A stretch of DNA of 64,000 nucleotides from Flavobacteriales bacterium (GTDB lineage Bacteria > Bacteroidota > Bacteroidia > Palsa-965): assembly GCA_040377305.1 (NCBI GenBank), contig JBEIPA010000012.1, forward strand, positions 32,001 through 96,000, in the 5' to 3' direction. Numbering within the stretch: position 1 is the first letter of the stretch; each line of letters begins with the position of its first letter. Below are positions 11,183-28,100 of this stretch, piece by piece. A program made the translations under genes and the position numbers. Under the pieces are notes generated by a model. It was not told the origin of the DNA and did no database searches. It was given only the letters and a program-made list of their open reading frames with translations.

Positions 11183-11222
11183 AAAGGCGTCCCGGCGGTA
11201 ATTCGTCGGGACGCCTTTTTTG
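11183..11222 (+). terminator. intrinsic terminator
   Basis: aaaggcgtcccggcg / cgtcgggacgcctttttt hairpin plus T run after the YHYH gene. Confidence 0.8.
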
Positions 11223-11247
11223 TTGCTTTTCGCGAAAATTGTACCTT

Positions 11248-11372
11248 GTGAGTTCACACATTAGTGCTTTTTGTCAGACTGAGCCTCGCTGAAGGGCGAC
11301 AACTGGCACGAATGATGAAATAGTGAGTTCACAATGTTATCCTTGTCAGACTGAGCGTAGCCGAAGGGTGAC
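11248..11372. repeat. two tandem REP-like units
   Basis: gtcagactgagcctcgctgaagggcgac (11273-11300) and gtcagactgagcgtagccgaagggtgac (11345-11372), each preceded by gtgagttcaca. Confidence 0.65.
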
Positions 11373-11396
11373 GAGGATGAAGACACAATCTCAACT

Positions 11397-12866
11397 ATGA
11401 ACAACGTATTACAATCTGGTTACGATTCACTCCACTCAGAAGAGAAGCGCAATTTGCGTCAACGGCTTTCTGATTCACCGCGTGCTATTCTGCTTTTGGA
11501 TTTTCTGGAAGAGAGAAGAGGGAAGAAGTTCAATACTGTGGATGCGGTGAACACTGTATATAGTGATGAATCGGACGAAGAGTTTACAACACTGCGCAAT
11601 CGTTTCTTCAAGCTTCGCAAGCACATCATTGAAACGCTTGATGAGAATACGGTGAATACGGGAACAGGAGTTTCGCTGCTACCCTTGGAGGAAGAGTTGT
11701 TTCGTTGCCGTCAAATGATCGGACAAAATCACTTTCAGCAAGCAGACAAACAGTTGAAAGCGCTGATCGCAGAATGCAAGCGACTCAATGTGTTTGAATT
11801 GCTGCCTGATGCTTACAACCAGATTGTTTATGCGAATCTCGCGCTGAACAATTTCAAAGAGCACGAACGTAATTTGCGCGACCTTGAGGAATCGAGCAAG
11901 GTGCTGGACGATTTACGTACCATGCAGGTATTGTCGCGACGAATTTATGTGGGCGCAATTACCCGTAATACCAAGGAAGTGGTGAAGCAATTGCAGGCAA
12001 TGCGCAGAATTGTTCTTCGTCGCAGTGCATTTCCACGCTTCGAATTGATTTATCATTTCGTAGTAGTAACGAATGCGCCTTCTGTTCCCGGTTACAGCGG
12101 AAAAGGACACGCGCGACATTTGGCTTCGCTCAAGAAAATATCAGCGAAGCATCCCGGAATGCCTGCTGCGAATTTCGAACCCAATGGAGCCGCGTTGATG
12201 CAATACTATCTGCTTGTCGCCGATGGATCACACCACTTCATGCGTGGTGATGTGCAAACCTGTTACAACCTCTTCAAAGAATCCTGGGATATCATGGAAC
12301 GCATTCCGAATCTCAAGCTGAGAAAGTCGGAAAGCAATTTCAAGAACAGGATTGCGATTGAAGTCGCAACGAATCGTTTCCGGGATGCTGTAAAGACTGC
12401 ACATGATCTCATCGAATTTCAGAAGGAGAACAAGAATGAAGAGAAGCGCCTGAACGGTTTTGCAGAGCTTGCAGTTATTTACAGTTATGCATATCCTGCG
12501 CTGAAATGTCCCGATCCTGAATTTCTGTCGCGGCAGCTCAAAGTATTCACATCCTTGCTCAAACGGGAAAAATCTGTTCTCCTCGGCGACGGGCAATCAA
12601 CACAAGCCATTTTTGCTTTCATGAACAAAGACTGGAAGCTTGCAAACACGATCATGCAGAATAAAGCTGCTCAGGATGTTTTCACTTCCATGGATCTTGA
12701 AATTTACAACGAAGTGCTGCTGATGTCGCCCGCAATGCCCGTTGAGAAAATCAAAGAGGTGAAGAAGCGTGCACAGACTATGCTCGACAAGTCGTTTTCT
12801 TCAGATCGGGTTTATTCGTTGAAGCGGGTGGTGAATTTGATCGGGATATTGGAGAATTCGCTGTGA
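11397..12866 (+). CDS. hypothetical alpha-helical (TPR-like) protein
   Basis: 489-aa ORF with helical pattern, no recognised catalytic motif. Confidence 0.6.
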   Translation: MNNVLQSGYDSLHSEEKRNLRQRLSDSPRAILLLDFLEERRGKKFNTVDAVNTVYSDESDEEFTTLRNRFFKLRKHIIETLDENTVNTGTGVSLLPLEEELFRCRQMIGQNHFQQADKQLKALIAECKRLNVFELLPDAYNQIVYANLALNNFKEHERNLRDLEESSKVLDDLRTMQVLSRRIYVGAITRNTKEVVKQLQAMRRIVLRRSAFPRFELIYHFVVVTNAPSVPGYSGKGHARHLASLKKISAKHPGMPAANFEPNGAALMQYYLLVADGSHHFMRGDVQTCYNLFKESWDIMERIPNLKLRKSESNFKNRIAIEVATNRFRDAVKTAHDLIEFQKENKNEEKRLNGFAELAVIYSYAYPALKCPDPEFLSRQLKVFTSLLKREKSVLLGDGQSTQAIFAFMNKDWKLANTIMQNKAAQDVFTSMDLEIYNEVLLMSPAMPVEKIKEVKKRAQTMLDKSFSSDRVYSLKRVVNLIGILENSL

Positions 12867-12923
12867 GAACACGATAGTAAATTAAGTGTTCTGTGCACTT
12901 AGTTGTTGTCCATGATAGCGTTG

Positions 12924-13520
12924 TCAAGTATACGACCTGGTGTTTTTGTAATCATCAGTTAAAATGGTCGGTATTGCTGAAGTGGTATACTTTCTAAAAT
13001 CCTTGACGGTTGTTTCATACTGCACATTGAGTGCCTGAAAAGCGTCAAATTGGATTTTGGAATAAATGTTGAATTTGAAGACGTGCATCTGACCATCTAC
13101 GGTCTTAAGATAAACAAGTGCATTACCGTTACGTTCTATATCACGATGGTTGTTTCTAAAACCACAATAATGGTCATAGAATAGGAGGAAGGTGTTGATA
13201 TGTGTTAGTGCTATAGCAAGTCGCTCATCCGGTTTTGTTATCGTGATTTCGTCCAACGTAAACGTAATTGTGCCGGCATAATTGCTGGGCTTGGGCCAGT
13301 CTGGATACAACCTCCGGATGTATTTATCAGTTACGAACAACAAACTCAAGAGTAATACGACAAATACAATTCCACGAGCCTCCCTTGAAACGGGAAGTGA
13401 TTGAACGACGAGCAGCGTAATGATTGCAACAACAACTGATCGTGCGATTCGCGCTAAGCAGCCGTGGTCTGAAAGAACATTGATGTCATCACGGTACAAA
13501 TTCAACTCAACGCTATTCAT
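12924..13520 (-). CDS. hypothetical membrane protein
   Basis: 198 aa, two TM segments. Confidence 0.6.
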   Translation of the reverse strand: MNSVELNLYRDDINVLSDHGCLARIARSVVVAIITLLVVQSLPVSREARGIVFVVLLLSLLFVTDKYIRRLYPDWPKPSNYAGTITFTLDEITITKPDERLAIALTHINTFLLFYDHYCGFRNNHRDIERNGNALVYLKTVDGQMHVFKFNIYSKIQFDAFQALNVQYETTVKDFRKYTTSAIPTILTDDYKNTRSYT

Positions 13521-13608
13521 TTATTGTTGCTTATGGTTTTCGGATTGACATCATTAGCGTTTCCTTCAAATAACTATAACTGAAAAGTGGTTGGCAACAA
13601 TTACACTC

Positions 13609-14046
13609 TTATGCATCAGTTTTCGCAAGGGCAGCTACTAACTCATCAGGCCTCTTTGTGGTCAATACAACTTTTGTTAGGCTGCCTGCTTCCGAAGTAA
13701 ATTCGATTGCAACTGTTTCTTTGACCCGTTCAACGTTAACTATGTTTTTGAGCGGAACGCGGTGAAGCATCTCATACTGTTGTAGAAAACTGGCAAAAAG
13801 CAAAGGACATTTAAGCCAAAGTTCGCTGTCTGTCACAACAATGTCCAGTCCGCGACTTGTTCCGCCCAGTCTGGTCATAAGAGTCCGAGTAGAGTGTCCA
13901 GACGCAGAACGATCCCGATATTTCACCAGTACCGTTTCGATATCTGGAAATATCGCAATTGCTTTTTTTCCTCGTGTATAAGCGAGATAAAACATAGTTA
14001 GCATCACGACACACCAACAAAGAAATAATACTGTTTGACCGTTCAT
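13609..14046 (-). CDS. hypothetical protein
   Basis: 145 aa, N-terminal TM. Confidence 0.6.
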   Translation of the reverse strand: MNGQTVLFLCWCVVMLTMFYLAYTRGKKAIAIFPDIETVLVKYRDRSASGHSTRTLMTRLGGTSRGLDIVVTDSELWLKCPLLFASFLQQYEMLHRVPLKNIVNVERVKETVAIEFTSEAGSLTKVVLTTKRPDELVAALAKTDA

Positions 14047-14104
14047 TTAATCGATTTTCCAAGCATTTATATTTCACGGTGATTTTTAGAAATTCCGGAA
14101 GCAG

Positions 14105-14563
14105 TTATTTCTCACAAATTTCCTTCAGCTTCTCCAATGCTTTTGGATATTTCTCGTTCATATAACCAACAAAATCTTCTGTGGTGTCTAAGTCAACAGT
14201 AACGGTCGTGGTTCCGTTGTTTTCTTCGAACGAATAGTTTTCAAATCCGTTTGCCCACTTTTCCACCTCAGGTCCGTCTGTAATTTCCTTGTCGCCTTGT
14301 ACAAGGCCATAATGTTGGATCGAAACAAATTTGCCGGGAGTGTTTTCCGCTATCCTGGAAACCATGCCTCCCTTTTCTCCGTTCTCCGAAACTCCGACAA
14401 AAAGAATTTTGCTTCCCTTGTCCCAGCTTCCTTCGAATGTCGAGGTTGCGTTAAACAGAGCAGTCCACTGCTCATACGTTGATTTATTGCTGATGCCAAG
14501 CATCACATCGTAAACCTTAGTTGCAGTTGCATTGATGTTTACTGTGAACTGGAGTTTTTTCAT
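14105..14563 (-). CDS. SRPBCC/AHA1-like domain protein
   Basis: INA...VYDVM, FEGSWDKGSKILF, ENYSFEE..GTTTVTV, YPKALEKLKEICE. Confidence 0.85.
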   Translation of the reverse strand: MKKLQFTVNINATATKVYDVMLGISNKSTYEQWTALFNATSTFEGSWDKGSKILFVGVSENGEKGGMVSRIAENTPGKFVSIQHYGLVQGDKEITDGPEVEKWANGFENYSFEENNGTTTVTVDLDTTEDFVGYMNEKYPKALEKLKEICEK

Positions 14564-14673
14564 GGTATTGAGTTTGTTTAGATTATACAGATTGTAATTG
14601 GAATGTTATTTCAATTCATATCTCGTGATACGAAACTTCAAATGAGCATAGACTGACTTGTTTCTGCATGCAG

Positions 14674-15927
14674 TTAATATTTTATCAGTTTCGTCGTATA
14701 AGTTTTATTGGAGTCAAGTTCCCCGATGGTTAGAAAATATATTCCCGGTTGTAAACTAATTTGAACCTCTCCATTGTGTATTTCATCCGCATAAACTAAT
14801 TGACCGACGGAGTTGTAAATGCTCAGATTTATGAGTCCGGTAACTCCAATAATTTTGAATGAATTATCAATTGGATTTGGAAATATACTGATGACTGAAC
14901 CAGAATAAAGTTCGTCATACCCCACAGACGAGGAGCAGTTTGATGGAATTGAATCGGTCGAGTAAAAGTCAGTGCAATTATTACAGAATACACTCTTCAT
15001 GAAGCAACTTGCTCTTTTAGCTCTAAACACACTACTTGCGTTTCGATAAATTCCATGTCCACCTGTGGTATCGATTGTTACTTCGCTGCAAATATTATTC
15101 GCAACCAAGTCATTATGTATTGCTCTGGAACCATTGAGTGTGTAGTGCAAAAATGAATTGTCCGAATCAATCTGAACTAATGTGTCAAGTTCCCCATGAA
15201 AAGCAATGGTTGGTAGCATTTCTACACTATCAATTTCGGATTCAGTTACGCCTCCCCAATTATTAAAAATGCCTTTGAATGAATAACTGTTTGATAAATT
15301 ATTTCCTGAAGTATAAAGGTTCCCTAATTCAACACTCGTAGCATTTGCGCTATACAACAACGAGATGCTGTCAAGTTCTGATTGGTCGGCATACACCATA
15401 CCTAATGCAAGTAATGAGCCTGCACTCTGACCTCCAACAAAAATCCAATTCGTATCTATTCTAACGGCATTTGCGTTGTTAACAACAAATCTCATTGCAG
15501 CGTGTCCGTCCTGAATGGCTCTGTATCTCGCCTTATATTGCCCGTATTCAGAAAAATCATGTCCAAGTCTGTAATTGACCGATGCACATACAAAACCTCT
15601 CAATGCCAAATGAACGCATAAGTCAGCGATGTCTCCGGATTGCTTGTCTCCTGAAGAGAAACCACCACCATGAAACAACATAATAAATGGACGTTTAGGC
15701 GACGAATCAATACCAAGATTTGGATAGTAGAGATCCAGAAGCAACGTGTCTGGATTTCCTAAATAATCTTGGGCGATACCATATTGAATATTTGTTCCAA
15801 TCGTAATTTCGGTTGAATCAAAGTATTGGACTTCGGTATATCTCGTATCGCTGGTGCAATACTGTCCATAAGTTTCTCCAATCAAAAGAAATATGGCCGA
15901 TGCAAGGACTAAAAATTTGGGTGTCAT
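14674..15927 (-). CDS. carboxylesterase-family hydrolase with T9SS type A C-terminal domain
   Basis: HGGGF, VNYRLG, GGQSAG, FHGELD, GHG; C-terminal FPNP...GIYFLTI. Confidence 0.85.
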   Translation of the reverse strand: MTPKFLVLASAIFLLIGETYGQYCTSDTRYTEVQYFDSTEITIGTNIQYGIAQDYLGNPDTLLLDLYYPNLGIDSSPKRPFIMLFHGGGFSSGDKQSGDIADLCVHLALRGFVCASVNYRLGHDFSEYGQYKARYRAIQDGHAAMRFVVNNANAVRIDTNWIFVGGQSAGSLLALGMVYADQSELDSISLLYSANATSVELGNLYTSGNNLSNSYSFKGIFNNWGGVTESEIDSVEMLPTIAFHGELDTLVQIDSDNSFLHYTLNGSRAIHNDLVANNICSEVTIDTTGGHGIYRNASSVFRAKRASCFMKSVFCNNCTDFYSTDSIPSNCSSSVGYDELYSGSVISIFPNPIDNSFKIIGVTGLINLSIYNSVGQLVYADEIHNGEVQISLQPGIYFLTIGELDSNKTYTTKLIKY

Positions 15928-15986
15928 TGATGTTTACTTTGAATAGATGTATTAACCTCTTGTTTTATTATTTATTTGTGAGTCCT

Positions 15987-16544
15987 TCACATAGAATTTC
16001 CATCAAAGTCAATTTTATACTTTGTGCCATCGAGATTAGTAAGTTCGATCCAGTCGCTTTCAATTTTGAACACTTCTTCTCCGTCAAGTGACATTAAAAT
16101 ACCAACCTCCTTAAATTCCCAATTTATATATCCATCGCGGTCAAGTTGGGTGACTTGCAATTCTCCGTGAACCAAATAATTGTCCTTGTGTTTGAATATT
16201 TGGAAACAAGAAGCAAAGTCTGCCTCGGTTTTCCATACGAGTTCCAGTTCAGTAAGTGTTAAGCAAAAAACGGAATTGCAGCAGCAGATTAGCAGTACAT
16301 CGTCGTCAATCAATGCTGAGTTTTGAGAAACATCTGTCTTGCCACCATAGCCGATAATTATACAGTCGCTGATTAGCTTTCCATCCTGGAAGATCTTGAC
16401 ACCGTGTTTTGACGTCGGAAAGTCGTATGCCATGGATGCGAAATGCTCTTTGGAATAATTGAAGGCATTATTGTCAACGCCAGATTCGTAACCCGGTTCG
16501 TTTAACACTTCAACTATTAAGTCCTTGTATTGATATTGGCTCAT
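15987..16544 (-). CDS. hypothetical protein
   Basis: 185-aa beta-rich ORF. Confidence 0.6.
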   Translation of the reverse strand: MSQYQYKDLIVEVLNEPGYESGVDNNAFNYSKEHFASMAYDFPTSKHGVKIFQDGKLISDCIIIGYGGKTDVSQNSALIDDDVLLICCCNSVFCLTLTELELVWKTEADFASCFQIFKHKDNYLVHGELQVTQLDRDGYINWEFKEVGILMSLDGEEVFKIESDWIELTNLDGTKYKIDFDGNSM

Positions 16545-16661
16545 TCTATTGTGTTCTTATAGTCCAATGATTAGGTTAAATATCGAAATTATCTAAACAG
16601 AACATTCTTTTACTAACTATTCGATGAACACGTATTAAACTACATCCGTCCGCACCACCAT

Positions 16662-17444
16662 TTACACATTCTGATTATGAAACTTCAAAACCTTAAATCG
16701 TTCTTTTGTCCAGAGAATGGTCATTATTGAAACGGGAATAGCGAGCATGTTGAAGAACACAAAATTTTCATAAAATTTCGGGAATTCTCCAAAAACAGTT
16801 TTCACAGGTTCATTCAACGACTCATCATTTAAGAACATAATGTTTACAAGCACGGTAACCACCAGCGCAATCACCATTGGCCAGATAGAAAACAAGCCAT
16901 GTACTTTTCCGGTCTGCGTATTCTTCAACATCTCCAGGTAGCCGTATTGATTGGTAACGCCGGTCATCTGATCGCCTGTTTTTACTTTACTGTATGAACT
17001 GCTTCCTTCCAGAGTTCGGCCGGAAATAGTTATAAAATACGTAGTACGTTTTTCAAATGTACTGCTACGCGTTCCGGACCGCGGCAGGTGTGTATTCACA
17101 GTCTCTGTCTTCGATCGTTTATCGGTAACAGTGCCTGAAACAAACTGGTAATTGAGCTTGGGCTTTTTTGATCCTGGGAGCGTTTCAATTAGTTTTTGAT
17201 TTCCCCATTTCAAATCTTGCAGCGGAGAACTGAATGCAACGATTTCCTTGTCCGGATTGATTTCAAAAATGAATTCAAATTTTTGCGTGAAGTCAATTCC
17301 TGACGGGAGACTTTTACCCCGTGTTTGTAACTTAAACTTTTCTCCGTTGATCATGAGTTCGTAAACGGGGTGAGGATCTCCGTATTCATCAAAATCACGA
17401 CTGCTGTAACGTTGAATATTGGAACGTACTACTTTATTGCTCAT
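16662..17444 (-). CDS. hypothetical protein with C-terminal TM segments
   Basis: 260-aa ORF. Confidence 0.6.
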   Translation of the reverse strand: MSNKVVRSNIQRYSSRDFDEYGDPHPVYELMINGEKFKLQTRGKSLPSGIDFTQKFEFIFEINPDKEIVAFSSPLQDLKWGNQKLIETLPGSKKPKLNYQFVSGTVTDKRSKTETVNTHLPRSGTRSSTFEKRTTYFITISGRTLEGSSSYSKVKTGDQMTGVTNQYGYLEMLKNTQTGKVHGLFSIWPMVIALVVTVLVNIMFLNDESLNEPVKTVFGEFPKFYENFVFFNMLAIPVSIMTILWTKERFKVLKFHNQNV

Positions 17445-17464
17445 GAGGTGGGTGTTGTTCGCTG

Positions 17465-17493
17465 GTCTATTTGGAATATGTGCTGTTAGCGGC
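17465..17493 (-). repeat. truncated attC-like remnant (long family)
   Basis: ctatttggaatatgtgctgttagcggc resembles ctattgcaaatgtgctgttatgcg at the right end of the 22918-23049 site. Confidence 0.55.
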
Positions 17494-17498
17494 TGATT

Positions 17499-18563
17499 TC
17501 ATATTTTTAGTTTAAACTTTTCAAACTTATTTCCATTTTGTTTGTAAACTCCGTCATTGTCAGTTCCAAGCCAAATTATTCCGCTGCTGTCTTGGTAGAT
17601 AGATACTAGCAAGACATTTTCTGTACCCTTTTTTACTTCAAGGTTGGTGAGCGTTTTACCGTCATATTTCCAAACTCCACCACCATAAGTAGTCATGAAT
17701 AAATTACCATCTTGATCTACAATTCCTGAGTTGAAATAATGGGGTTTTTCTTTTCGAACACCCTTTATTATTTCATATTGTAAATTGTTCGATTCAATTT
17801 TATACTTGCTTATAAAATTGCTCAACCAAAAATATCCGTCTTTGTCTTGAATGATTGAACGAACACCGCCAGCAGTGCCATCTGGGAGAATTGAAAGTTC
17901 TTTTTCATCAAACCACATAAACGATTTTCCATCGTATCGGAACGCACCTGCTACAAAAGTTCCAAACCAAATATTTCCGTCTTTGTCTTTATTTATGCCA
18001 TAAACTGAATAAGGGTTATTGCTATTAAAAGGGCTGATTAGCGTGTCAATTCCAAACGCTTTATTTAAATCTTTCCGTGGCAATTTTAATTCAAAAAGAG
18101 AATCGCCACTATAACGGAATAAATCATTTGCATTGTAGCCAAACCATAAGTCATTCGGTAAAAGTTTCCATTGGTTATGTGACGATTTTATTGGCTTTAA
18201 AGTGGTAAATTGATTTCCGTCAAATTTGCTTATTCCTTTGTGTGTTTCGATGTATATGTTTCCGTCAGTATCTTCTTGAATACCACGGATTGAATCGTTC
18301 ACTAATCCGTCTACTGTTGTAAATTGTTTTAACTCGTTTCCATCTAAAGAATAGATACCGTTTCCATTGCTACCAAACCAATATTTTCCTTTTGAGTCTT
18401 GAAATATTCTCCAAATTTGATTATCCAGTTCAGAAATCACTTTGCCAATTTGTACAGTTTCTGTTTCAGTCTTTTTGTGTTCAGATTGCATCTGTCCTTT
18501 GCATGAGAGGAAACTAATCGAAACAAAAACTATTGAGATTGTTTTTATAGTGGTAATTGTCAT
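17499..18563 (-). CDS. two-component-regulator-propeller (Reg_prop) repeat lipoprotein; cassette 10
   Basis: Lipobox FLSC; repeated IxQDxxGxxWFG blades. Confidence 0.8.
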   Translation of the reverse strand: MTITTIKTISIVFVSISFLSCKGQMQSEHKKTETETVQIGKVISELDNQIWRIFQDSKGKYWFGSNGNGIYSLDGNELKQFTTVDGLVNDSIRGIQEDTDGNIYIETHKGISKFDGNQFTTLKPIKSSHNQWKLLPNDLWFGYNANDLFRYSGDSLFELKLPRKDLNKAFGIDTLISPFNSNNPYSVYGINKDKDGNIWFGTFVAGAFRYDGKSFMWFDEKELSILPDGTAGGVRSIIQDKDGYFWLSNFISKYKIESNNLQYEIIKGVRKEKPHYFNSGIVDQDGNLFMTTYGGGVWKYDGKTLTNLEVKKGTENVLLVSIYQDSSGIIWLGTDNDGVYKQNGNKFEKFKLKI

Positions 18564-18594
18564 TTCAATATTAATATGGCTGGTTTAAAGTTGC

Positions 18595-18680
18595 CGCTAA
18601 CATTTCGCGGATTGGCGTCGCGCGCTTTTCCTTCTAATAAATATACGTGAAAAGCGCAAAGTGCCAATGCGCGATTAGGG
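18595..18680 (-). repeat. attC-like site, resident family (one core mutated)
   Basis: cgctaacatttcgcggattggcgtcgcgcgcttttc...gaaaagcgcaaagtgccaatgcgcgattaggg; overlaps stop codon at 18675. Confidence 0.8.
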
Positions 18681-19121
18681 GCTGATAGCTCTTATCGGTT
18701 TCCAAACGAAATAGAACGCTCCAATAAGTATGTTCACAAGCGAAATAATATAAACTGAATTATACGTTTCAGACCTATAATAACTCAATCCGGCTTCTGT
18801 GTGCATATTCACTCCGGGATGAGAATTGTCGACGATGCAAAATGCGAAAATTAGAATTCCGATAGCTTGTAATATAAAAATGGATCCTTTAGCCAATCTA
18901 CTCTTTACTTTTCGTGTCTGTCGAATAAAAACAAAGTAACAGACTGGAAAGACAACAAATAAGAAAAAGTAATTGTACATGATTGAAGTCACGTGCATAC
19001 CAAAAGTCACACCATCATGAATGTCCTTGGTCTGGATTCCAACGGAAGGGATAATCAGTGAAGAAGTCAACACGATCAGAAATGCCGATCCTAATTTATT
19101 GAGATTAGTGAAGTCTGTCAA
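18675..19121 (-). CDS. hypothetical membrane protein; cassette 9
   Basis: 148 aa, four TM segments; TTG start uncertain. Confidence 0.55.
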   Translation of the reverse strand: MTDFTNLNKLGSAFLIVLTSSLIIPSVGIQTKDIHDGVTFGMHVTSIMYNYFFLFVVFPVCYFVFIRQTRKVKSRLAKGSIFILQAIGILIFAFCIVDNSHPGVNMHTEAGLSYYRSETYNSVYIISLVNILIGAFYFVWKPIRAISP

Positions 19122-19157
19122 CGTTCTTATGTTTGGAGTCGCTCAGTGCTTTTAGCA
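19116..19157 (-). repeat. possible internally deleted attC-like remnant
   Basis: caacgttcttatgtttggagtcgc aligns loosely with taacgttttgcggattggcgccgc, followed by cagtgcttttagc. Confidence 0.35.
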
Positions 19158-19163
19158 GTAGGG

Positions 19164-19694
19164 TCACACTTCGGCTTGAAGCAGTTTGTCAATACCTCGA
19201 ATTATCAAATCGCGATGGGCATAAAATGATTTCGGAAAATCTTCGGTACCAACATGTGGGCGCTTTTCCAATGCAAACCAATTGCGGAGACCTATCAGGT
19301 TCTCTTTTTTACGTGCCAATAGATACCGTGAATCAACCGCAACCTTATAGAAATATAGTTCATCAGTGAGTGTAGCTTTCTGAATCGAACCGCATTCTAG
19401 ACATTTTATAAGGCCGATCTTTTTGTCCAGTTCATCTGTTTCGGAAAACATTAGCGGATACAGATTCATTAGCCACGTTGGATCTTTCATCCAAACTTTA
19501 CCTCCGAAAAGTTCATTTACAATTATTCCATTGTCAGGCTTATAGCACGCGGAAATTTCAGAGAAAGTCGCGTTAGTATATCGATCCTTAATTACAGCTA
19601 TGTGCTCTTCATAAATCCGACGGAATGGGAAGGTGAACTGAGCTTTAGCAGAACAGGTAGGGCAAACCACATCAATGTCATAATTAATCGTCAT
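19164..19694 (-). CDS. hypothetical protein with two CxxC motifs; cassette 8
   Basis: CPTC and CLEC, possible zinc ribbon. Confidence 0.65.
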   Translation of the reverse strand: MTINYDIDVVCPTCSAKAQFTFPFRRIYEEHIAVIKDRYTNATFSEISACYKPDNGIIVNELFGGKVWMKDPTWLMNLYPLMFSETDELDKKIGLIKCLECGSIQKATLTDELYFYKVAVDSRYLLARKKENLIGLRNWFALEKRPHVGTEDFPKSFYAHRDLIIRGIDKLLQAEV

Positions 19695-19706
19695 GTGGAC
19701 AATTAC

Positions 19707-19790
19707 GCTTAACGTTTATGGATTGGCGCCGCGCTTTTTCCTTCTAATAAATATACGTGAAAAGTGGAGGGTGACAATACGCTGTTACCC
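19707..19790 (-). repeat. attC-like site, resident family (partly degenerate)
   Basis: gcttaacgtttatggattggcgccgcgctttttccttctaataaatatacgtgaaaagtggagggtgacaatacgctgttaccc. Confidence 0.8.
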
Positions 19791-19807
19791 GTAGCAGTTG
19801 TATCAAA

Positions 19808-20170
19808 CTACTGCTTATCTGTCTCATTTTTGAACTCCTCGAGCATGCGATAAAACATATCTATTGATTCCAAATGCTGCTGTTTCGATGGTATCGTTTC
19901 CAGCATAACGTTCCAATCGATTTCTCTCGGTTCGAAGCCCATGCATTTGGCAAGAATCATATTGGCCCAACCTGCTGTGGATTCGTAATAGTCAAGTTTG
20001 CTAGCAACCCAGTCGTGAAATGGGTCTGATTGTAATTCAAATTTGTCTTCAACCAGCGCATGATGGTAACCAGAAATGTAAATGTGTATACTTTTTAAGG
20101 TGAGTTCTCCAGTGAACATTGCTGGTCGACCTTCTATTTGCTTCAACACCGGATAACAGTTCAGTATCAT
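19808..20170 (-). CDS. hypothetical protein; cassette 7
   Basis: 120-aa ORF filling the space between two repeats. Confidence 0.7.
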   Translation of the reverse strand: MILNCYPVLKQIEGRPAMFTGELTLKSIHIYISGYHHALVEDKFELQSDPFHDWVASKLDYYESTAGWANMILAKCMGFEPREIDWNVMLETIPSKQQHLESIDMFYRMLEEFKNETDKQ

Positions 20171-20177
20171 ATTTTGC

Positions 20178-20260
20178 GATTAGGGGTTTGGGGAATTGCG
20201 ACTCTCTTGTCCTTCTAATCAATATACATAAAAGCGCGTGGAGCCAATGCGCTGTTAGCA
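20178..20260 (-). repeat. attC-like site, resident family (left arm degenerate)
   Basis: Right part ccttctaatcaatatacataaaagcgcgtggagccaatgcgctgttagca conserved; left AAC core lost. Confidence 0.7.
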
Positions 20261-20264
20261 CCAG

Positions 20265-20765
20265 TTATTGTTTGCTCCGCTCTTCCCACCACTTTTTTAT
20301 TTCCTGTACTCTTGTCGAATCAGTGATAGAACAGTCGACAAAGAAATTTGGGTACGGCTCATTTTTTCGATACGAATCAATTATATTCATCACCTGCCCT
20401 CCCAATGTAGAAAAATCATCACTGCCTGGCTTCCAATCGGATGAAATTGATTCCTTGACGCATTTAGCACGCCGCTTGGATTCTATTAATGTCATCAAAT
20501 AATTTAAGTCAGATTCCTTAATCCAATCCGATTTGGCTCTGTTTCCAGTTGTCAGGCGATAAATGGTATATATTCCCCTTTCTTCGAATTTGAGCAGTTC
20601 AACATAATCTACCACTGTAATTCTGTGAAAAAAAATCCAATCGTATTTATGGCGTTTTTGCTTATAGCGGTGGGTCGCTTCATTTAAATTAGCTCTTTCC
20701 ATTGAGTCTGCATGGTCCGAACATGCTGCCAGACTAATTGCAAATATTAAGAGCAGTCTGATCAT
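20265..20765 (-). CDS. hypothetical lipoprotein; cassette 6
   Basis: Lipobox LAAC; bounded by repeats. Confidence 0.7.
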   Translation of the reverse strand: MIRLLLIFAISLAACSDHADSMERANLNEATHRYKQKRHKYDWIFFHRITVVDYVELLKFEERGIYTIYRLTTGNRAKSDWIKESDLNYLMTLIESKRRAKCVKESISSDWKPGSDDFSTLGGQVMNIIDSYRKNEPYPNFFVDCSITDSTRVQEIKKWWEERSKQ

Positions 20766-20776
20766 ATTAAAATTGG

Positions 20777-20856
20777 TGGTAACGTTTTTCGGATTGGCGC
20801 CGCGCGCTTTTCATTCTAATAAATATACGTGAAAAGAGCCCTTGAGCTGGTTAAGA
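20777..20856 (-). repeat. attC-like site, resident family (right arm degenerate)
   Basis: tggtaacgtttttcggattggcgccgcgcgcttttcattctaataaatatacgtgaaaagagcccttgagctggttaaga; overlaps stop at 20851. Confidence 0.8.
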
Positions 20857-21258
20857 ATTGGTGTTTTCCCGATGTGCCACTTTGAACAGCATTGCGATTT
20901 GAATAAGCCCAAGAACCAGGAATGGAATTGCTGTCCACAAGTAAATGTCAGTCCCTCGCCAATAGCAATCAGGAATGATGAAAAATTGATAATGGACAAT
21001 TTCAATCGTGAGGAGAATGAATCCTGCAGCGAAAAATTTGAGAGACCTTAAGTTCGAAGTTGCAATCGCTAGTATTAAGCAAAGTAGTCCGATGAAATAT
21101 ATTAGTGCTATGAAAAAACTGTCGAGGGTTGTTAGCGACAAGTTAAAAGCCATTAGTCCAATTGTAGGGAATGAGAATTTGTTGCCGCTTCTAAATTGTA
21201 TCAAAGTTAAAACGAGGCAAGCAATTTTCAGAAATAATTGACTTCTTCTGGAGATCAT
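20851..21258 (-). CDS. hypothetical membrane protein; cassette 5
   Basis: Start moved to MISRR (21258) because the longer ORF runs through the repeat; four TM segments. Confidence 0.65.
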   Translation of the reverse strand: MISRRSQLFLKIACLVLTLIQFRSGNKFSFPTIGLMAFNLSLTTLDSFFIALIYFIGLLCLILAIATSNLRSLKFFAAGFILLTIEIVHYQFFIIPDCYWRGTDIYLWTAIPFLVLGLIQIAMLFKVAHRENTNS

Positions 21259-21266
21259 ACGCTTGC

Positions 21267-21352
21267 TGCTAACGTTTTGCGGATTGGCGCCGCGCGCTTT
21301 TCCTTCCAATAAATATACGTGAAAAGCGCATGGTGCCAATGCGCTGTTAGCG
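21267..21352 (-). repeat. attC-like site, resident family (intact)
   Basis: tgctaacgttttgcggattggcgccgcgcgcttttccttccaataaatatacgtgaaaagcgcatggtgccaatgcgctgttagcg. Confidence 0.9.
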
Positions 21353-21359
21353 TATCGTG

Positions 21360-21842
21360 CTACCGACTTTTGTTCTTCGATTTATTGCGAGCTTCAAATT
21401 CTGCGATCAGGGTGTTCAATTGAATTACCTGTTCAGTATTAATTGAACCTGTTTGTTGTGCTACAACTATATTGTCGATGACATAGTCGTATTCATGAAT
21501 GTTCTTTATTTTATTTCTTCGGAGAGCATCCTGAATCGCATCCTTCTTTTTGAATTGAAGTCCCGCACTTGCAATCAATTGCCAGAATTTGTCACTGTCA
21601 GGCCCCGCAGTTTCATTCCAGTAGATTAGAAAGTCATGTTCAAGATATTTGAGACTGGCGACCTTTCTGAATTGCGGCTCAGGATTTAGTGCCAATTTCC
21701 TAGTATTGGATGAAAAGAACAAAAGTGGCTCCTTGATGGATGCAGGCAAAGTTGACGATTCAGAAACTACCTGTTCGGCAATATCGATTGCTTTAACCAA
21801 TTCATTGGCTCGCTCTTCATAAATCGACTTCTTGGTAGTCAT
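21360..21842 (-). CDS. hypothetical protein; cassette 4
   Basis: 160-aa helical ORF between two repeats. Confidence 0.75.
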   Translation of the reverse strand: MTTKKSIYEERANELVKAIDIAEQVVSESSTLPASIKEPLLFFSSNTRKLALNPEPQFRKVASLKYLEHDFLIYWNETAGPDSDKFWQLIASAGLQFKKKDAIQDALRRNKIKNIHEYDYVIDNIVVAQQTGSINTEQVIQLNTLIAEFEARNKSKNKSR

Positions 21843-21852
21843 AGGGCATGTA

Positions 21853-21939
21853 CGCTAACGTTTTGCGGATTGGCGCCGCCCGCTTTTTCCTTCTAATAAA
21901 TATACATGAAAAGCGCGTGGTGCCAATGCGCTGTTATGC
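21853..21939 (-). repeat. attC-like site, resident family (intact)
   Basis: cgctaacgttttgcggattggcgccgcccgctttttccttctaataaatatacatgaaaagcgcgtggtgccaatgcgctgttatgc. Confidence 0.9.
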
Positions 21940-21944
21940 GGTAG

Positions 21945-22388
21945 TTATTTTATCTCAGAAACGTGAATGTCGCTACATGTTATCACGTTGATGATATGTC
22001 TTGCCGTTACGACAACATAGTGCCGAATTGAACTTTCCGAATTTAATTGGAATCCCAGCGTTTCATTTCTGCAGTATGTGAGGTAAGATGATTTCGTGTA
22101 AACTCTAATGCGATCGCCGTCGTACTCGCCAAATACGCCAGCGTCATAGCTTTCGTTAACAACGTGATATGCGATATAAGACGTAAAATGTAATCGATAT
22201 AATGCGCCGGAGTCGAAATTTACCGGGTAAACCGGACCTATATCGGTTTGTGATATGTTTAAACTCTGGGAAAGTTCGGACACTTCGCCTGCAATCAGAT
22301 CAATTATCAATTCATTCTCGCTGGGTTCAAATAATTTATCAACTAACAGGTTTCGGCAAGCATTAACTATGTCGTATGGTGTTGTCAT
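21945..22388 (-). CDS. hypothetical protein; cassette 3
   Basis: 147-aa ORF between two repeats. Confidence 0.75.
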   Translation of the reverse strand: MTTPYDIVNACRNLLVDKLFEPSENELIIDLIAGEVSELSQSLNISQTDIGPVYPVNFDSGALYRLHFTSYIAYHVVNESYDAGVFGEYDGDRIRVYTKSSYLTYCRNETLGFQLNSESSIRHYVVVTARHIINVITCSDIHVSEIK

Positions 22389-22395
22389 AAATTAC

Positions 22396-22481
22396 GCATA
22401 ACGTTTTGCGGATTGGCGCCGCGCGCTTTTCCTTCTAACTAATATACATGAAAAGCGCGTGGTGCCAATGCGCTGTTAGGC
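22396..22481 (-). repeat. attC-like site, resident family (intact)
   Basis: gcataacgttttgcggattggcgccgcgcgcttttccttctaactaatatacatgaaaagcgcgtggtgccaatgcgctgttaggc; overlaps stop at 22476. Confidence 0.9.
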
Positions 22482-22904
22482 GTTGGACTTTCCTGAAGTT
22501 CCTTGAAAAACATCTTTATATTCAGGATGCTTCTTTTTGTCACTTGCCGAGAGCACGGTTCGCAATGCATTAGCGAGCACCCACTTCATGGATCGATCTT
22601 CTTCTTTATAGAAATGTTCGAGTAATTTGTCTTTCGCAATCGATCGGGCCGATTTCTCAGTTAGTGCTCTGATAATGCCTTCTCTTATACGCGAATGATG
22701 CGGAAGGTCAAGGTGTTTAACCAGGATTGGGTAGGCCTGTTCGTACGAACCGAGAAACTTGTTTTCTAAATGCTCGACAGCACGATTATTTACTAAATCA
22801 TAAACACTTTCTACAATACATCCTACGGCATTCAGTTCACGAACAAGTGTCTCTTGGTCTTTGAGAAGCATCTGATGAAATTCTTGTTTTTCAAGCTCGT
22901 TCAT
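22476..22904 (-). CDS. hypothetical protein, HEAT-repeat-like; cassette 2
   Basis: PILVKHL...IREGIIRALT...KWVLANAL pattern. Confidence 0.7.
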   Translation of the reverse strand: MNELEKQEFHQMLLKDQETLVRELNAVGCIVESVYDLVNNRAVEHLENKFLGSYEQAYPILVKHLDLPHHSRIREGIIRALTEKSARSIAKDKLLEHFYKEEDRSMKWVLANALRTVLSASDKKKHPEYKDVFQGTSGKSNA

Positions 22905-22917
22905 GTACGTGTCTTGC

Positions 22918-23049
22918 GCCTAACGTTTTGCAGATTTGCGATGGGCGGGCTTTTTAACACAACTGGTCATTCGGAGAACTGAACTTTCGGTAACCACAAA
23001 ACTGTCTGCGGAGAACGAAACCCTGCCTATTGCAAATGTGCTGTTATGC
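22918..23049 (-). repeat. attC-like site, long (~132 bp) different family
   Basis: gcctaacgttttgcagatttgcgatgggcggg ... ccctgcctattgcaaatgtgctgttatgc; same terminal architecture, unrelated interior. Confidence 0.8.
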
Positions 23050-23061
23050 GTTCGCCATTCT

Positions 23062-23673
23062 TTACTCATTGGTGATGTCCTCAATTTTAGTTGCAAATTT
23101 TCTGTTGTCCTTTGAGATATGTTCGTAGTTGTCTTGTCCAACAAAAAAACTCGAAGGTGTCCAACTGTTTGTTAAAGGAGTTTTCAAATTGTCCAAGTAA
23201 TATTGTCCTGAAACTTCAAAGTCAAGAATTGCAAGTTGAAAAGGGTAGATTTTATATAACTGTTTCAATATTGTCGCAAAGAACTTTTTCAACTCGCTAG
23301 GGACTTTTGGGTTTTCAGTCCAAGTTTTGTATTCAGAACCGAACACCTTTTCTATTGCTGCTGTGTAAAAACAAATGTCAAACCAATTAAAGCCAGTTTC
23401 TACTGGCTCGTCTTCTCGTATATTGTATGTCATAAATGGAATTGCATAATTGTCAAGGTGCAAAACTCCAATATGTTGAATATTTACAATGTCAATTGGG
23501 ATTGAATTATTATTTACGTCAAAAGGTCCTTCAACGTTTTTTAAAGACCAAATAAAGTCAGTGTAAAGCCTTATTGGTTCGTTGTCTGCACTGGGACAAA
23601 CTTGAATAGCAAGTTCGTAAAAACCACCTGTTCTTAATTCTTTGTCAAGAAGTATATCGTTACTTTTTGTCAT
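23062..23673 (-). CDS. hypothetical protein; cassette 1 (recombinase-proximal)
   Basis: 203-aa ORF between candidate attI and the long site. Confidence 0.75.
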   Translation of the reverse strand: MTKSNDILLDKELRTGGFYELAIQVCPSADNEPIRLYTDFIWSLKNVEGPFDVNNNSIPIDIVNIQHIGVLHLDNYAIPFMTYNIREDEPVETGFNWFDICFYTAAIEKVFGSEYKTWTENPKVPSELKKFFATILKQLYKIYPFQLAILDFEVSGQYYLDNLKTPLTNSWTPSSFFVGQDNYEHISKDNRKFATKIEDITNE

Positions 23674-23706
23674 TCGTTCTCTAGCGCTGTAGTTTTATAT
23701 GGTGAC

Positions 23707-23753
23707 GCATAACTAGTTTATTTGCGCTACATCGTAGCGCAAATAAACCCTAG
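23707..23753 (-). other. candidate attI-like primary recombination site
   Basis: Single core gcataac (23707-23713) abutting a perfect 15-bp inverted repeat gtttatttgcgctac-atc-gtagcgcaaataaac (23716-23748). Confidence 0.6.
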
Positions 23754-23803
23754 ATGGCTGTATTGGCGCGTAAACATCCGATTTAGCTCATACAATTTAC
23801 AAA

Positions 23804-24685
23804 TTAAAGTGAATCGAAAGGCGAACGTATTTTCCCGATTGCATGGGCGCTTACGTGGGTATAAATCTCTGTCGTTTTGCTGCTCGCATGCCCCAACAAC
23901 TCCTGAATGTATCGAAGATCTGTTCCCGACTCCAGCAGATGAGTGGCAAAACTGTGCCGTAACCAATGAAGTGTGACCGGTTTCGTAATTCCCGCTCGGG
24001 CAACACTTTGCTTCAGCACCTGCTGCAAACTCCGGGCATCGTAGGGTTGACCGCACTCTTGTCCTTCGAATAGATATTTTACAGGACGATACGATTTGAA
24101 ATATTCACGCAACTGCTCGAGAATCTTTTCACTCAACGGAACAATTCTGTCCTTACGGCCTTTCCCATTCTTAATGATGACGAGCATGCGATTCGAATCA
24201 ATATGCTCCGGCAAAAGACCGATCAATTCTCCACTGCGCAATCCGCAACTGTAAATGAGCGATAACATAGCTTTGTGCTTGGTATTTATTGTGCGTGTAA
24301 GCAGAAGCTTTACTTCTTCTTTACTCAGCACATTCGGTAGTGGCTTTCCGCGACGCGGCCGATAGATCAATTCCGGATTCAGAATCTTATTGTGCAGAAT
24401 CCGGAAGTACAACTTTATTGCGTTGATACATTGATTCTGAAAGGACACAGACAATTCCTTCGCAATGATGTATTCCGAATTGAAACGCTGTACATCTGTG
24501 TTTGTAATCACAGAAACATCCTTGTCGCAAAAGGAAATAAATGTCCGTAAGCATTCCGTGTAAACCTTTATCGTACCATTACTATAACGGCGCGACTTCA
24601 GCCAGTCACTGAACTGTTCCATAGATGGAGTGGGTGCTCCCCGTCCGACCGGCTCGTCCGGGCGGGCATAAGTGTTCTCTTTCAT
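23804..24685 (-). CDS. tyrosine recombinase, integron-integrase-like (no IntI-specific insertion)
   Basis: YSCGLR, GKGRKDR, HWLRHSFATHLLE.GTDLRYIQELLGH, TTEIYTHV, C-terminal SPFDSL; N-terminal RRYSNGTIKVY...SFQNQCINAI. Confidence 0.93.
   Translation of the reverse strand: MKENTYARPDEPVGRGAPTPSMEQFSDWLKSRRYSNGTIKVYTECLRTFISFCDKDVSVITNTDVQRFNSEYIIAKELSVSFQNQCINAIKLYFRILHNKILNPELIYRPRRGKPLPNVLSKEEVKLLLTRTINTKHKAMLSLIYSCGLRSGELIGLLPEHIDSNRMLVIIKNGKGRKDRIVPLSEKILEQLREYFKSYRPVKYLFEGQECGQPYDARSLQQVLKQSVARAGITKPVTLHWLRHSFATHLLESGTDLRYIQELLGHASSKTTEIYTHVSAHAIGKIRSPFDSL
24640..24666. repeat. 27-bp GC-rich mini-hairpin element
   Basis: cccgtccgaccggctcgtccgggcggg; related copy at 60756-60782. Confidence 0.5.
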
Positions 24686-24765
24686 ATTTTATCTTTTTCG
24701 TAGCGTACATATAGCTGCAAAGTAAAATGATAAAAATGAAATAGCCGTTTGTAAACGTTTGTAAA

Positions 24766-24778
24766 CGGATAATCTCCG
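24766..24778. promoter_or_regulatory. putative Bacteroidota SOS (LexA-like) box
   Basis: cGGAtaatcTCCg = CGGA-N5-TCCG, about 80 bp upstream of the recombinase start. Confidence 0.5.
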
Positions 24779-24797
24779 GTATTCGACGAAATTCATT

Positions 24798-25040
24798 GTC
24801 ATCCCGATAGCTATCGGGATGAGCGTAGCCGAAGGGTGACAAGTGAAGGCCAGACTGAACGTATCCAGATAGCGATCGGGAGACGGGTGATAAGCAGCGT
24901 AGTCGAATTCACTTCTGTTGATCTTGGTACATTGTCAGATTGAGCACTTCGACAGGCTCAGCACAGGCTTCGCCGAAGGTTGACAAGCAGAATTGTGAGA
25001 CTCAGCGCCTGACCGCTGTGGAGCGTAGCTGAAGGTTGAC
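24798..25040. repeat. cluster of four REP-like units with nested insertions
   Basis: gtca..tgagcg...gaagg.tgac-type units at 24798-24840, 24849-24891, 24934-24984, 24995-25040. Confidence 0.65.
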
Positions 25041-25046
25041 GAACAG

Positions 25047-25082
25047 AAAACAAAAGCCCACGAAGTTTAAACTCCGTGGGCT
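25047..25082 (-). terminator. intrinsic terminator of the large adhesin gene
   Basis: Minus strand AGCCCACGGAG-TTTAAA-CTTCGTGGGCT followed by TTTGTTTT. Confidence 0.7.
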
Positions 25083-25101
25083 CCGTGTACTTCGTGATCA
25101 A

Positions 25102-28100
25102 CTACTGACCCCGAATAACTCGTATCGTCTGAACACTGCTACCCACCAACCTCACCGAATAAATTCCATCCGCCCAATCATTCATATCCAACTGCGTAGT
25201 GGTTTTTCCTTCGACGTTCTCGGCATAAACCAGTTTGCCGTTTGCATCAAACACTTCGAGTGTGGAAACGTTTGCATCTGCTGTCCACTGCACCGTTGTG
25301 AAATCAGCAGCTGGATTTGGATAAGCGAGTACTCCATTGCTTTGTGTAACACCATCGATTCCCATGCACAGGTCGACAAACACAATGGCATTCGCGGAGT
25401 TGTAGCAACCGTTTCCATCCGTGTAATCGTAGGTCAAGGTTACGAAACCTGTTCCTGCTGCTCCAGGGAAGAATTGATTTCCGATAATTCCCGGACCGGA
25501 ATACGTTCCGCCTGCTGGTGAACCGCCTGTAAGTACCAGCGGATTACTGAATACACAGAACGAAGTATCGTTGCCCATCGAGAACTGAACATTTGGTAAT
25601 GGATTCACCGTGACATTGATTGCAGTCGATGTAACTCCGCACGATCCGTTGGAAACATCAACCGTGTAACTTCCTGATTGCGTCACCACAATTGAACTTG
25701 TTGTTGCACCTGTACTCCAGAGATACGATGTACCACCACTAGCAGTGAGTGTAACCGCACCGCCTGCGCAGAATGTTGTCGGTCCGCCTGCAGAAATGTT
25801 TGCAGTAGGAGGAGGGACAACCGTTACCGAAATAGAATTGGAGTTTGCAGTACATCCGTTCGCGCCTGTCACCACACAATCGTAAGTTCCGGATGCTGAA
25901 ACAAGAATGGATTGCGTTGTAGCGCCTGTGCTCCACAAATAGCTATTCGCACTTGCTACCGTAAGCGTTACGTTTCCACCTGTACAGAATGTTGTTGGTC
26001 CACCTGCAGAAATGCTTGCAGTAGGAGCCGGATTCACAACAACCGTAATGGTGGAAGTTGTATCGCTGCACATTCCGTTGGAGACGATGCAATAGTACGT
26101 TCCTGCAACACTTACGTTGATTGCAGTAGTTGTTGCACCTGAACTCCACAGGTAATTAGTGCCGCCACCAGCTGTGAGTGTTACAACATCGCCCTGACAA
26201 ATTGTAGTAGATCCGGAAGCAGTGATTGTTGCGCTCGGAGTTGAGTTTACTGTAACCGTTATCGGCGATGAAACTGCGGTGCATCCATTCGCCGAAGAGG
26301 TAGTGACACTATACGTTCCTGAAGTAGAAACTGTAATGGCTTGCGTCGTTGCGCCTGTGCTCCATAAGTAACTATTCGAAGCATCTGCTGTTAGTGTTAC
26401 GTTGTCGCCCGCGCAGAAACTCAGCGGACCTGATGCCGTGATTCCTGCTGTTGGCGCTGGATTAACTACCACAGTTACCAGTGAAGTTGTATCAGTACAA
26501 GTTCCATTGGAAACAACACAGTAGTAATTTCCTGCAGTACTTACGTTGATTGCCGTCGTTGTTGCTCCTGTGCTCCACGTGTAAGTGGTGCCACCACCTG
26601 CAGTTAAGGTTACCACATCTCCCTGACAAATTGTTGTAGGACCAGACGTGCTGATCGTTGCGTTCGGAGTTGTGTTCACGGTAACTGTTACCGGCGATGA
26701 TTGTGCAGTACATCCATTCGCTCCGGTGGTAATTACGTTGTACGAACCGGAAGTTGTGACAACGATTGAAGAAGTTGTTGCACCTGTGTTCCACAAATAA
26801 CCGTTAGCAGCATTGGCAAACAATGTTACGTTATCGCCAGCGCAGAATGTTGTAGGTCCGCCAGCTGTAATGCTCGCTGTTGGTGATGGATTTACCGTAA
26901 CCACTACGGATGAAGTTGTGTCTGTACACGATCCGTTTGATACAACGCAGTAGAAAGTTCCGCTTGTGCTTACGGTGATTGCTGAAGTTGTTGCTCCTGT
27001 ACTCCACAGGTAAGTTCCACCACCGCCTGCAGTGAGTACAACGTTATCTCCCGAACAGAATGTTGTTGGTCCGCCGGTTGAAAGTGTTGCAACTGGTGGC
27101 GCGATTACATTCACATTCACGACCTGTGAATTCGAAACACAACCGTTTGCATTGGTCACGGCTACGGAGTACGCACCGCCCGAAGTCACCAGTATCGTTT
27201 GCGTAGTAGCCCCGTTGCTCCATAAATAAGAAGATGACATCGGAACAGAAAGTGTAACGCTTCCACCCGAACAGAAGGTTGTTGGACCGCTTGGTGTGAT
27301 TGTCGCATTCGGCATTGCAATAACGTTGATGCGTGCTGTATCTGTTACGTTCACGTTTCCGCAACCGGGCTGTGAGATTGTAATCGTAATGACTTGTGTT
27401 CCTGATCCCATTCCGCTTGTGTTAATCGGAATGGTCAATGCAGAACCGGTTCCGTTTGTTGCTGCAGAAACTGGAGTGCTGTTCCAGAATGCCTGATACG
27501 TTACGCCAACCTGACTTGTGTTCAATGTTACGTTTGAAGTTGTAACATCATCGCAAATGGTTGCACCGGAAACTGTCATGGCCTGCGACATTGGATTGTT
27601 GTACACAGCAATGACGGGTGTGCGTGTCGGTGATGGGCAACCGGCAGCAGAAACAATGACAACCCAGAATGTATCTGTTGCTGTAAGATTGGTGAGCGTG
27701 TACGTTCCGGAAGTTTGTCCGTTGATCGGAGTTCCGTTAACTGCAACGCTATACCACTGATAACTTCCACCAACTGGTGCACCACTCGCAGTGAGTACTG
27801 CATTTCCGCTTCCGCAAACGGTATCGTTAACTGTTGTTGCAGCTACAGGAAGCGGATTCACAACCACCGTGTTTGTTTGTGGAGTAGTTACGCATCCGTT
27901 AGGATTTGAAATGACGAGTGTATAAACTCCTGCGTGAATTGCAGCTGCATTGAGAATAGGAGCAGGCACTTGCTGATTCGAAGTGAAACCATTTGGTCCG
28001 TTCCAGGAATAAGTTGCTCCTGCAATCAACGGTGAGCTGAGCTGAATGATATTTCCTTCGCACACGGGTGAATTCGAAAACGCAACCATGTTGTTGTGAT

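Follow-up and report, generated by a model that had tools for sequence, protein, structure and literature searches.

The window analysed here, a 64,000-nucleotide (nt) stretch of a Flavobacteriales bacterium genome (contig JBEIPA010000012.1 of assembly GCA_040377305.1, positions 32,001 to 96,000), contains an array of gene cassettes next to a tyrosine recombinase gene. Ten co-oriented open reading frames (ORFs) lie on the minus strand within positions 17485-23713, the ORFs themselves covering 17499..23673. They encode products of 120-354 aa and have GC contents of 0.34-0.413; the array has a GC content of 0.39, compared with 0.44 for the window. Hairpins of 80 or 126 nt, bounded by TAAC and GTTA, separate the cassette ORFs. 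Only the product of cassette 10, which has Reg_prop propeller repeats, matches a family in Pfam or NCBIfam. The other nine are without a family match, none of the ten belongs to an immunity family in Pfam, NCBIfam or PADLOC, and none matches a defence system. The recombinase gene (23804..24685, minus strand; 293 aa, PF13495 and PF00589) is located upstream of the cassettes in the same orientation. It is followed by a putative attI-like insertion site (23711..23748, minus strand), an AT-rich motif and then GTT (G at 23713), with an upstream palindrome; the insertion function is suggested by sequence.

Each intact cassette has a 15-position start arm, which begins with GTT, and an end arm that leads into an attC-like site, all on the minus strand. 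The start arm of cassette 1 (23699..23713) is matched by an end arm with an extra base at position 10 (23043..23058), followed by site S1 of the 126-nt class (22921..23046), related copies of which are present on contigs C49 and C4 of the same genome. Cassette 2 (arms 22910..22924 and 22475..22489) is followed by S2 of the 80-nt class (22399..22478), cassette 3 (22388..22402 and, with an extra base, 21933..21948) by S3 (21856..21936), and cassette 4 (21845..21859 and, again with an extra base, 21346..21361) by S4 (21270..21349). Further along, sites are damaged. Only a remnant of S5 is left (20780..20839), from which the end arm of cassette 5 is deleted, so that this cassette cannot be paired. 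Cassette 6 has a start arm with a mismatch at position 5 (20769..20783); its end arm (20254-20268) and S6 together occupy 20186..20268, but the downstream arm and GTT are gone, leaving cassette 7 without a start arm. The end arm of cassette 7 adjoins a diverged site S7 (19710..19798), the site between cassettes 8 and 9 has collapsed (S8, 19120..19160), and the end of cassette 9 lacks the GTT complement and is joined to S9 (18598..18688). Cassette 10 has a start arm (18587..18601) and an end arm (17485..17499), after which S10 is truncated. In plus-strand coordinates, the G of the start arm and that of the end arm are located at 23713/23043 (cassette 1), 22924/22475 (cassette 2), 22402/21933 (cassette 3), 21859/21346 (cassette 4), 20783/20254 (cassette 6) and 18601/17485 (cassette 10).

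An initial annotation, made from the letters of the window alone, had proposed that the two ends of each cassette are reverse complements of one another and specific to that cassette, and had quoted end pairs for cassettes 1, 2, 3, 4, 6 and 10. All six pairs were found where it had placed them. They belong to the six of ten cassettes that keep both ends, and all six match; ‘each’ overstates the case, since cassettes 5, 7, 8 and 9 have a lost or degenerate end. When starts and ends were permuted, the true assignment (46/54) was the best of 720 permutations (next 42, mean 24.2), with scoring limited to positions 5-9 and 12-15 and one extra base allowed for every pairing. The flanks also match better across the gene than across the repeat that they touch, as proposed, in 4/4 comparisons in the window (9/7/7/8 vs 6/5/1/4); the mean over 44 pooled comparisons is 4.55+3.80 for cognate ends and 2.43+2.09 for the end across the touching repeat. 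The single extra base described for three cassettes is present in cassettes 1, 3 and 4. In cassettes 1 and 4 it is accounted for by an optional T at position 10 (see below), and in cassette 3 it can be placed equally well at position 9.

The proposal that the complementarity is longer than in classical cassettes did not hold, and a length above 7 nt is ordinary. The unbroken run is mostly 9-10 nt in this system and measures 9, 8, 8, 9, 4 and 9 nt in the window, and class 1 cassettes reach 7-13 nt in a control set (13 scorable of 16 entries) that is small and annotation-guided, with pairs chosen by the best run, which favours long runs; two of the 13 pairs share the same ends, and one is seen only to position 10. 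Automated detection of class 1 sites missed many sites. For most integron cassettes, Bouvier et al. give an end pairing of 9-11 nt (PMC2727003). From that account and the control, end complementarity and run length are known properties of integrons. In arm length, only the total arm of 15 positions with its internal mismatch is distinctive, and none of the control pairs shows the mismatch at position 11 followed by pairing at positions 12-15.

The pairing rule was derived from related loci. The main set comprises the best 80 of at least 585 related loci in GTDB genomes, 62 of which have the attI-like motif after the recombinase gene. Together with the window and with two further arrays from its genome, these 62 loci make up 65 arrays, in which sites were located with a second detector that uses only AAC, GTT, the adjacent bases and the inner stem, and requires an inner register of 1/5. 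It detected 76 sites in 32 of the 65 arrays over 233 kb, compared with 10 sites in 606 kb upstream. An interval was counted as passing with at least 4/5 matches at positions 5-9 and at least 3/4 at positions 12-15. By this measure 60 of 73 distinct intervals pass (51/54 up to 1500 nt), as against 2.8% of 5256 non-cognate pairs, and the pooled pairing score is 577, whereas none of 100000 permutations exceeds 336. A held-out set of 80 of at least 585 metagenome loci, searched with the detector unchanged, yielded 40 new intervals, 31 of which pass (27/29 up to 1500 nt; non-cognate pairs, 1.8%).

Resolved by position, the cognate match rates are 0.84-0.93 at positions 4-9, 0.63 at position 10, 0.03 at position 11 (main and held-out sets alike), 0.84-0.95 at positions 12-15 and 0.12 at position 16. 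The start arm has A at position 11 in 73/73 cases and the far end has C opposite in 60/62 well-matched pairs (32/32 held-out), so that the bottom strand has a G·T pair where the top strand has an A·C mismatch. An extra T at position 10 occurs in 10/62 pairs and in 5/32 held-out pairs. The outer arm follows a single rule: positions 1-9 or 1-10 are paired, with an optional extra T at 10, A stands opposite C at 11, positions 12-15 are paired, and pairing then stops. The letters of the arm vary while the pairing holds, with 42 different words at positions 5-9 in 62 pairs. The stem at positions 12-15 carries separate information, because cognate pairs match at 3.76 of its 4 positions and 47 non-cognate pairs with identical positions 1-9 match at 1.91.

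The system is present in 15 of 41 sampled related genomes, including one unpublished genome (G012). Within the genome of the window, integrase-free arrays or single sites of the same family are located on contigs C12 (~7600-11000), C17 (~200500-201850), C49 and C4. The C12 and C17 arrays begin at a motif resembling the attI-like site of the window, and both integrase-free arrays obey the pairing rule; the five C12 cassettes match their own ends at 6-9 of 9 positions. Several cassettes of several kb also keep matching ends (L066:1150-8451, and others in L011, L073 and L102), and the L066 array contains three near-identical stretches of 1.9 kb.

The inner part of the sites has a regular geometry as well. 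One base is unpaired after AAC and five before GTT, giving spacers of 1 and 5 nt, and the inner stem extends for ~20 bp with its two strands in register and no bulge at a fixed place. A second A opposite C, and with it a G·T wobble of the bottom strand, occupies inner position 15 in 59/75 sites, in 29/37 held-out sites and in 4/4 intact window sites, and the detector gives this wobble no preference over a normal pair. Outer position 11 and inner position 15 are both the tenth pair from a 6-nt spacer, and both arms begin T/A-rich; on these grounds we infer that the folded bottom strand resembles a twofold-symmetric recombinase core. When cassettes were circularised in silico and the junctions folded, the bottom strand was more stable than the top strand in 63/65 cases and exceeded the stability of the site as it stands in the array in 62/65; in the held-out set, the bottom strand was the more stable in 31/32.

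The candidate attI-like site recurs too. The motif with GTT follows the recombinase gene in 51/80 held-out loci as well as in the 62/80 of the main set, and positions -7, -9 and +11, which the search did not require, are conserved. The 75 nt upstream of the attI-like sites in related loci contain nested inverted and direct repeats, with a predicted fold below -5 kcal/mol in 56/62; these repeats are possibly accessory binding sites. A sigma-70 scan for a cassette promoter (Pc), which does not cover Bacteroidota promoters, gave 5 matches compared with 2.3 expected, none of them near the attI-like site.

The initial annotation had placed the split of the site at or near GTT on integration, and both the bases flanking GTT and the limits of identity between repeated cassettes support this. 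The base before GTT is A at 59/62 attI-like sites and C at 73/74 attC-like sites detected by folding, and the base after GTT agrees with the far end of the same cassette in 62/62 pairs (53 A/A, 9 G/G; held-out 32/32). For cassettes repeated within L063, L066 and L047, and for one common to L032 and L060, identity starts or stops at the GTT junction. Variants of cassette 3 in other metagenomes have different neighbours, with the switch at the site edges, and where cassettes turn up again, at other positions or in other organisms, their boundaries are at GTT. In integrons the crossover lies between G and TT; here, from these flanking-base patterns and identity limits, the exchange maps to within GTT, a precision set by the fact that these three bases are shared.

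The adjoining recombinase differs from integron integrases. It scores 212 bits against the integron integrase model TIGR02249 (cut-off 265), with model positions 182-238 unmatched. Aligned with IntI1 it is ~41 aa shorter, in gaps of 31 and 10 aa that are the same in all aligned family members, and it has 22 aa at the stretch where IntI4 has 64. In these alignments, the IntI-specific insertion (intI_Cterm) is missing. The motifs GLR (148), HWLRH (240), LGH (264) and IYT (274) are present. The catalytic domain aligns to archaeal XerA without a long gap (E 1e-41), and the match to NF040815 is just above its cut-off; the protein is far under the cut-offs of the XerC and XerD models, and separate Xer-like genes of this genome are located on contigs C15 and C6. 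Among the matches listed, the nearest relatives are Bacteroidota records. In a tree of 19 proteins the recombinase family groups with IntI1, apart from two Xer-like proteins; we claim no sister relation, because long branches meet in this tree and several of its rows are partial. A single-sequence structure model was unusable, with a mean predicted local distance difference test score of 40.9. The open frame of 294 aa compares with 358-520 aa in relatives, whose N-terminal extension it lacks, and a GC-rich palindrome is located in its first codons (~24643-24670).

The array resembles integrons in its single-gene units, the AAC...GTT hairpin after the gene, the complementary ends, the crossover at GTT, the better-folding bottom strand, the insertion site beside the recombinase, and the integrase-free arrays elsewhere in the genome. 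It differs in that the recombinase lacks ~41 aa including the IntI insertion and is located upstream of the cassettes in the same orientation, although co-oriented IntI is known (PMC4889954). The sites differ as well: their spacer is 1/5 (~5/6 in integrons), the inner stem has no fixed extrahelical base such as integron sites have in the L arm, and the fixed outer arm of 15 positions, which combines the G·T at 11 with a distal stem of 4 bp, is absent from the 13 class 1 pairs. Because the IntI insertion and the extrahelical base are missing, we do not file the system as an integron member. Néron et al. report one complete Bacteroidetes integron and describe integrons as nearly absent there (PMC9024848); Ghaly et al. 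list Bacteroidota among the phyla with integrons (PMC8618304).

Xer/dif systems share the compact catalytic domain without the IntI insertion. Xer recombinases act on conserved double-stranded sites, whereas the sites in the window are hairpins of 80-126 nt with variable arms.

The closest published system is rAID-1 of Bacteroidales, described by Ross et al. as an XerD-like recombinase 5' of co-directional low-GC genes, with repeats likened to those of integrons (bioRxiv 10.1101/471110). The criteria for rAID-1 are a recombinase more than 44% identical to BF9343_RS08045, at least two co-directional downstream genes with a GC content of at most 41%, and a cargo of interbacterial immunity genes; the ten co-directional genes of the window (0.34-0.413) follow the GC rule. 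An rAID-type recombinase of Parabacteroides distasonis is 43.5-45.8% identical, has the same gaps and is accompanied by cognate end pairing: 8/9 units (L086:11716-19298) pair their own ends over 8-10 nt from position 2 (5 by script, 3 by eye). In contrast, the sites of the P. distasonis cluster are shorter, with ATT at the place of GTT and no stem at 12-15, and its cargo includes type VI secretion system immunity genes, a kind of family that the window cargo does not match. In the literature covered, which leaves out most subscription journals, we found neither a description of the site rule nor a recombination test of this family.

We hypothesize that the array is a variant of the integron that recombines folded single strands, and that the two ends of a cassette are the two strands of the outer arm of one site, split within GTT. 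We assign this reading a probability of roughly 0.8. The adjoining recombinase would cut inside the GTT of one folded single-stranded site per cassette, and integration would leave one strand of the outer arm before the gene and the other behind it. The excised cassette circle would fold its bottom strand into a pseudo-twofold core of two arms and a 6-nt spacer, each arm carrying a G·T at the tenth base pair and, next to the cut, a short T-rich bulge. The cassette would enter at the first place of the array through a single strand exchange with the double-stranded attI-like site, and the product would be resolved by replication, as in integrons. Circle excision, bottom-strand folding, single exchange and replicative resolution are proposed on the basis of integron biology (PMC2727003). 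A further step, that the two G·T pairs and the bulge choose the strand, and hence the gene orientation, in place of extrahelical bases and the IntI insertion, is in our view as open to doubt as to belief.

Several observations weigh against this reading. The 1/5 register was imposed in the second detector, although the same register came out most often in an independent fold-based scan, at 57 sites (next class, 9). The opposite wobble, a G·T on the top strand, is frequent at inner position 6 (27/76 sites; held-out, 23/37), so that the strand asymmetry is not uniform. The pairing rule fails in 13/73 intervals and in 9/40 held-out intervals, mostly long ones, which probably span undetected sites. 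The loci are kin, and their interval counts are therefore not independent events. In the window itself, 4/10 cassettes are without a partner end. The rAID-type cluster pairs its ends without a distal stem, so that some members of the family do without the wobble module. Finally, no circle junction joining a cassette's own ends was found in contigs from four sequencing runs, although contigs drop rare forms and this is not evidence of absence; two joints in run X1, the sides of which are separated by unknown sequence, are likely from other arrays.

Among the alternatives, the one that survives best accepts integron-like recombination, and holds that the long arm and the wobble are a by-product of cassette making, or serve mere stability, and are not read by the enzyme. 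It is compatible with the mechanism proposed above and replaces only its last step, the reading of the wobble. That identical arm words recur across genera, that the rAID-type cluster does without the distal stem and that class 1 cassettes likewise extend past 7 nt all speak for it. Against it, a Watson-Crick pair at position 11 would be more stable but is almost never present, pairing breaks off abruptly at 16, and the inner arm has a mirrored counterpart of the wobble. We regard this explanation as unlikely, although it is the most serious competitor.

Much less probable is that the recombinase acts on double-stranded DNA in the manner of Xer at dif, with the complementarity reflecting symmetric binding arms and folding being incidental. 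The alignment to XerA without a long gap and the match to NF040815 are in agreement with this idea, and a 14-bp arm has the size of a recombinase half-site. Against it, the arms differ widely in sequence and distant ends nevertheless pair; in the circle, 80-126 nt separate the two arms, which only folding brings together; and the conserved mismatches are stabilising on one strand only.

Slightly less probable again is that a canonical IntI, acting in trans or in a past host, moved what are ordinary integron cassettes, the adjoining recombinase being a bystander. The window cassettes resemble ordinary ones in their AAC...GTT polarity, have run lengths in an overlapping range and come with an attI-like motif that is AT-rich. 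No gene of this 99.99% complete genome passes the TIGR02249 cut-off, however, the attI-like motif directly follows this recombinase family in 62/80 and 51/80 loci, and the spacer of 1/5 contrasts with mostly 5-6/5 in class 1. A similar-looking site of a Polaribacter phage, P12002L_attC1, was the sole failure with IntI1 among six sites in the tests of phage sites described in PMC9892861; this is weak evidence, because its geometry is not identical to that of the window sites. In the phage (~29240-40950), similar hairpins, P12002L_attC1 among them, flank methyltransferase genes that face the other way, and the P12002L sites did not pass the site detector.

The least credible explanation, largely refuted by the unit boundaries, is that small non-autonomous transposons, one per gene, have inserted into a repeat or terminator hairpin, as imperfect inverted ends of 15 nt around each gene might suggest. 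Duplicated units carry the downstream hairpin and end at the next GTT (L063, L066, L047), the attI-like site and not an attC-like hairpin precedes the first unit, and the window units are all co-oriented, with arms that are unit-specific rather than constant in the family.

The feature is real and known in kind; what sets it apart is a sharply defined site architecture of its own, linked to a recombinase other than IntI. Its unusual traits are the mismatch at position 11, the 4-bp distal stem, the mirrored inner wobble and the recombinase without the IntI insertion, none of which the initial annotation had reported. The IntI insertion is held to be essential for recombining folded single strands, and here the cassette ends define, base by base, the substrate for an enzyme that lacks it. 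Hairpin recombination and strand choice without the insertion, and a possible origin of integrons from Xer-like ancestors, become directly testable. In addition, the end-pairing rule can be used to annotate the boundaries of cassettes throughout a large phylum, with at least 585 confirmed relatives in each of two scans.

The tetracycline resistance gene tet(X3), which is of clinical concern, shows the same kind of ends. On an Acinetobacter plasmid (NZ_CP104735.1; L085:3804-5013) it immediately follows the gene of a recombinase that belongs to the same family (43.5% identity), and many Acinetobacter plasmids are among the best 40 recombinase matches. Its start has a GTT arm with A at position 11, and its end arm, which precedes a truncated hairpin, gives G at 11 and matching positions 12-15; the match between the two arms is only partial. 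By its sequence, tet(X3) looks like a captured cassette of this system. We speculate, tentatively and at slightly less than even odds, that there is a widespread second lineage of integrons, centred on Bacteroidota, in which an Xer-sized enzyme acts on folded single-stranded DNA and reads a pseudo-twofold hairpin where two symmetric G·T wobbles take the place of extrahelical bases; rAID-1 would be a branch of this lineage, which would have captured tet(X3) before the gene reached Acinetobacter plasmids. Such a lineage would likely have been missed by searches based on IntI and attC.

Downstream of cassette 10, seven further co-oriented ORFs (12924-17444) are mostly without recognisable sites, with one degenerate site at ~13533-13601; this stretch is probably an eroded older part of the array. 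An Rfam scan of positions 11000-26000 gave no family at the gathering score and eight weak chance matches to hairpins, and in a scan of eight related loci one match to Flavo-1 is located upstream of the recombinase, outside any array. Short repeated palindromic elements resembling REP (family D18) occupy intergenic positions at 24823-25048, upstream of the recombinase, and at 11279-11380. Tandem repeats are located at 39916-40467 (periods of 12/24 nt) and 42223-42479 (period of 9 nt), probably within coding sequence.

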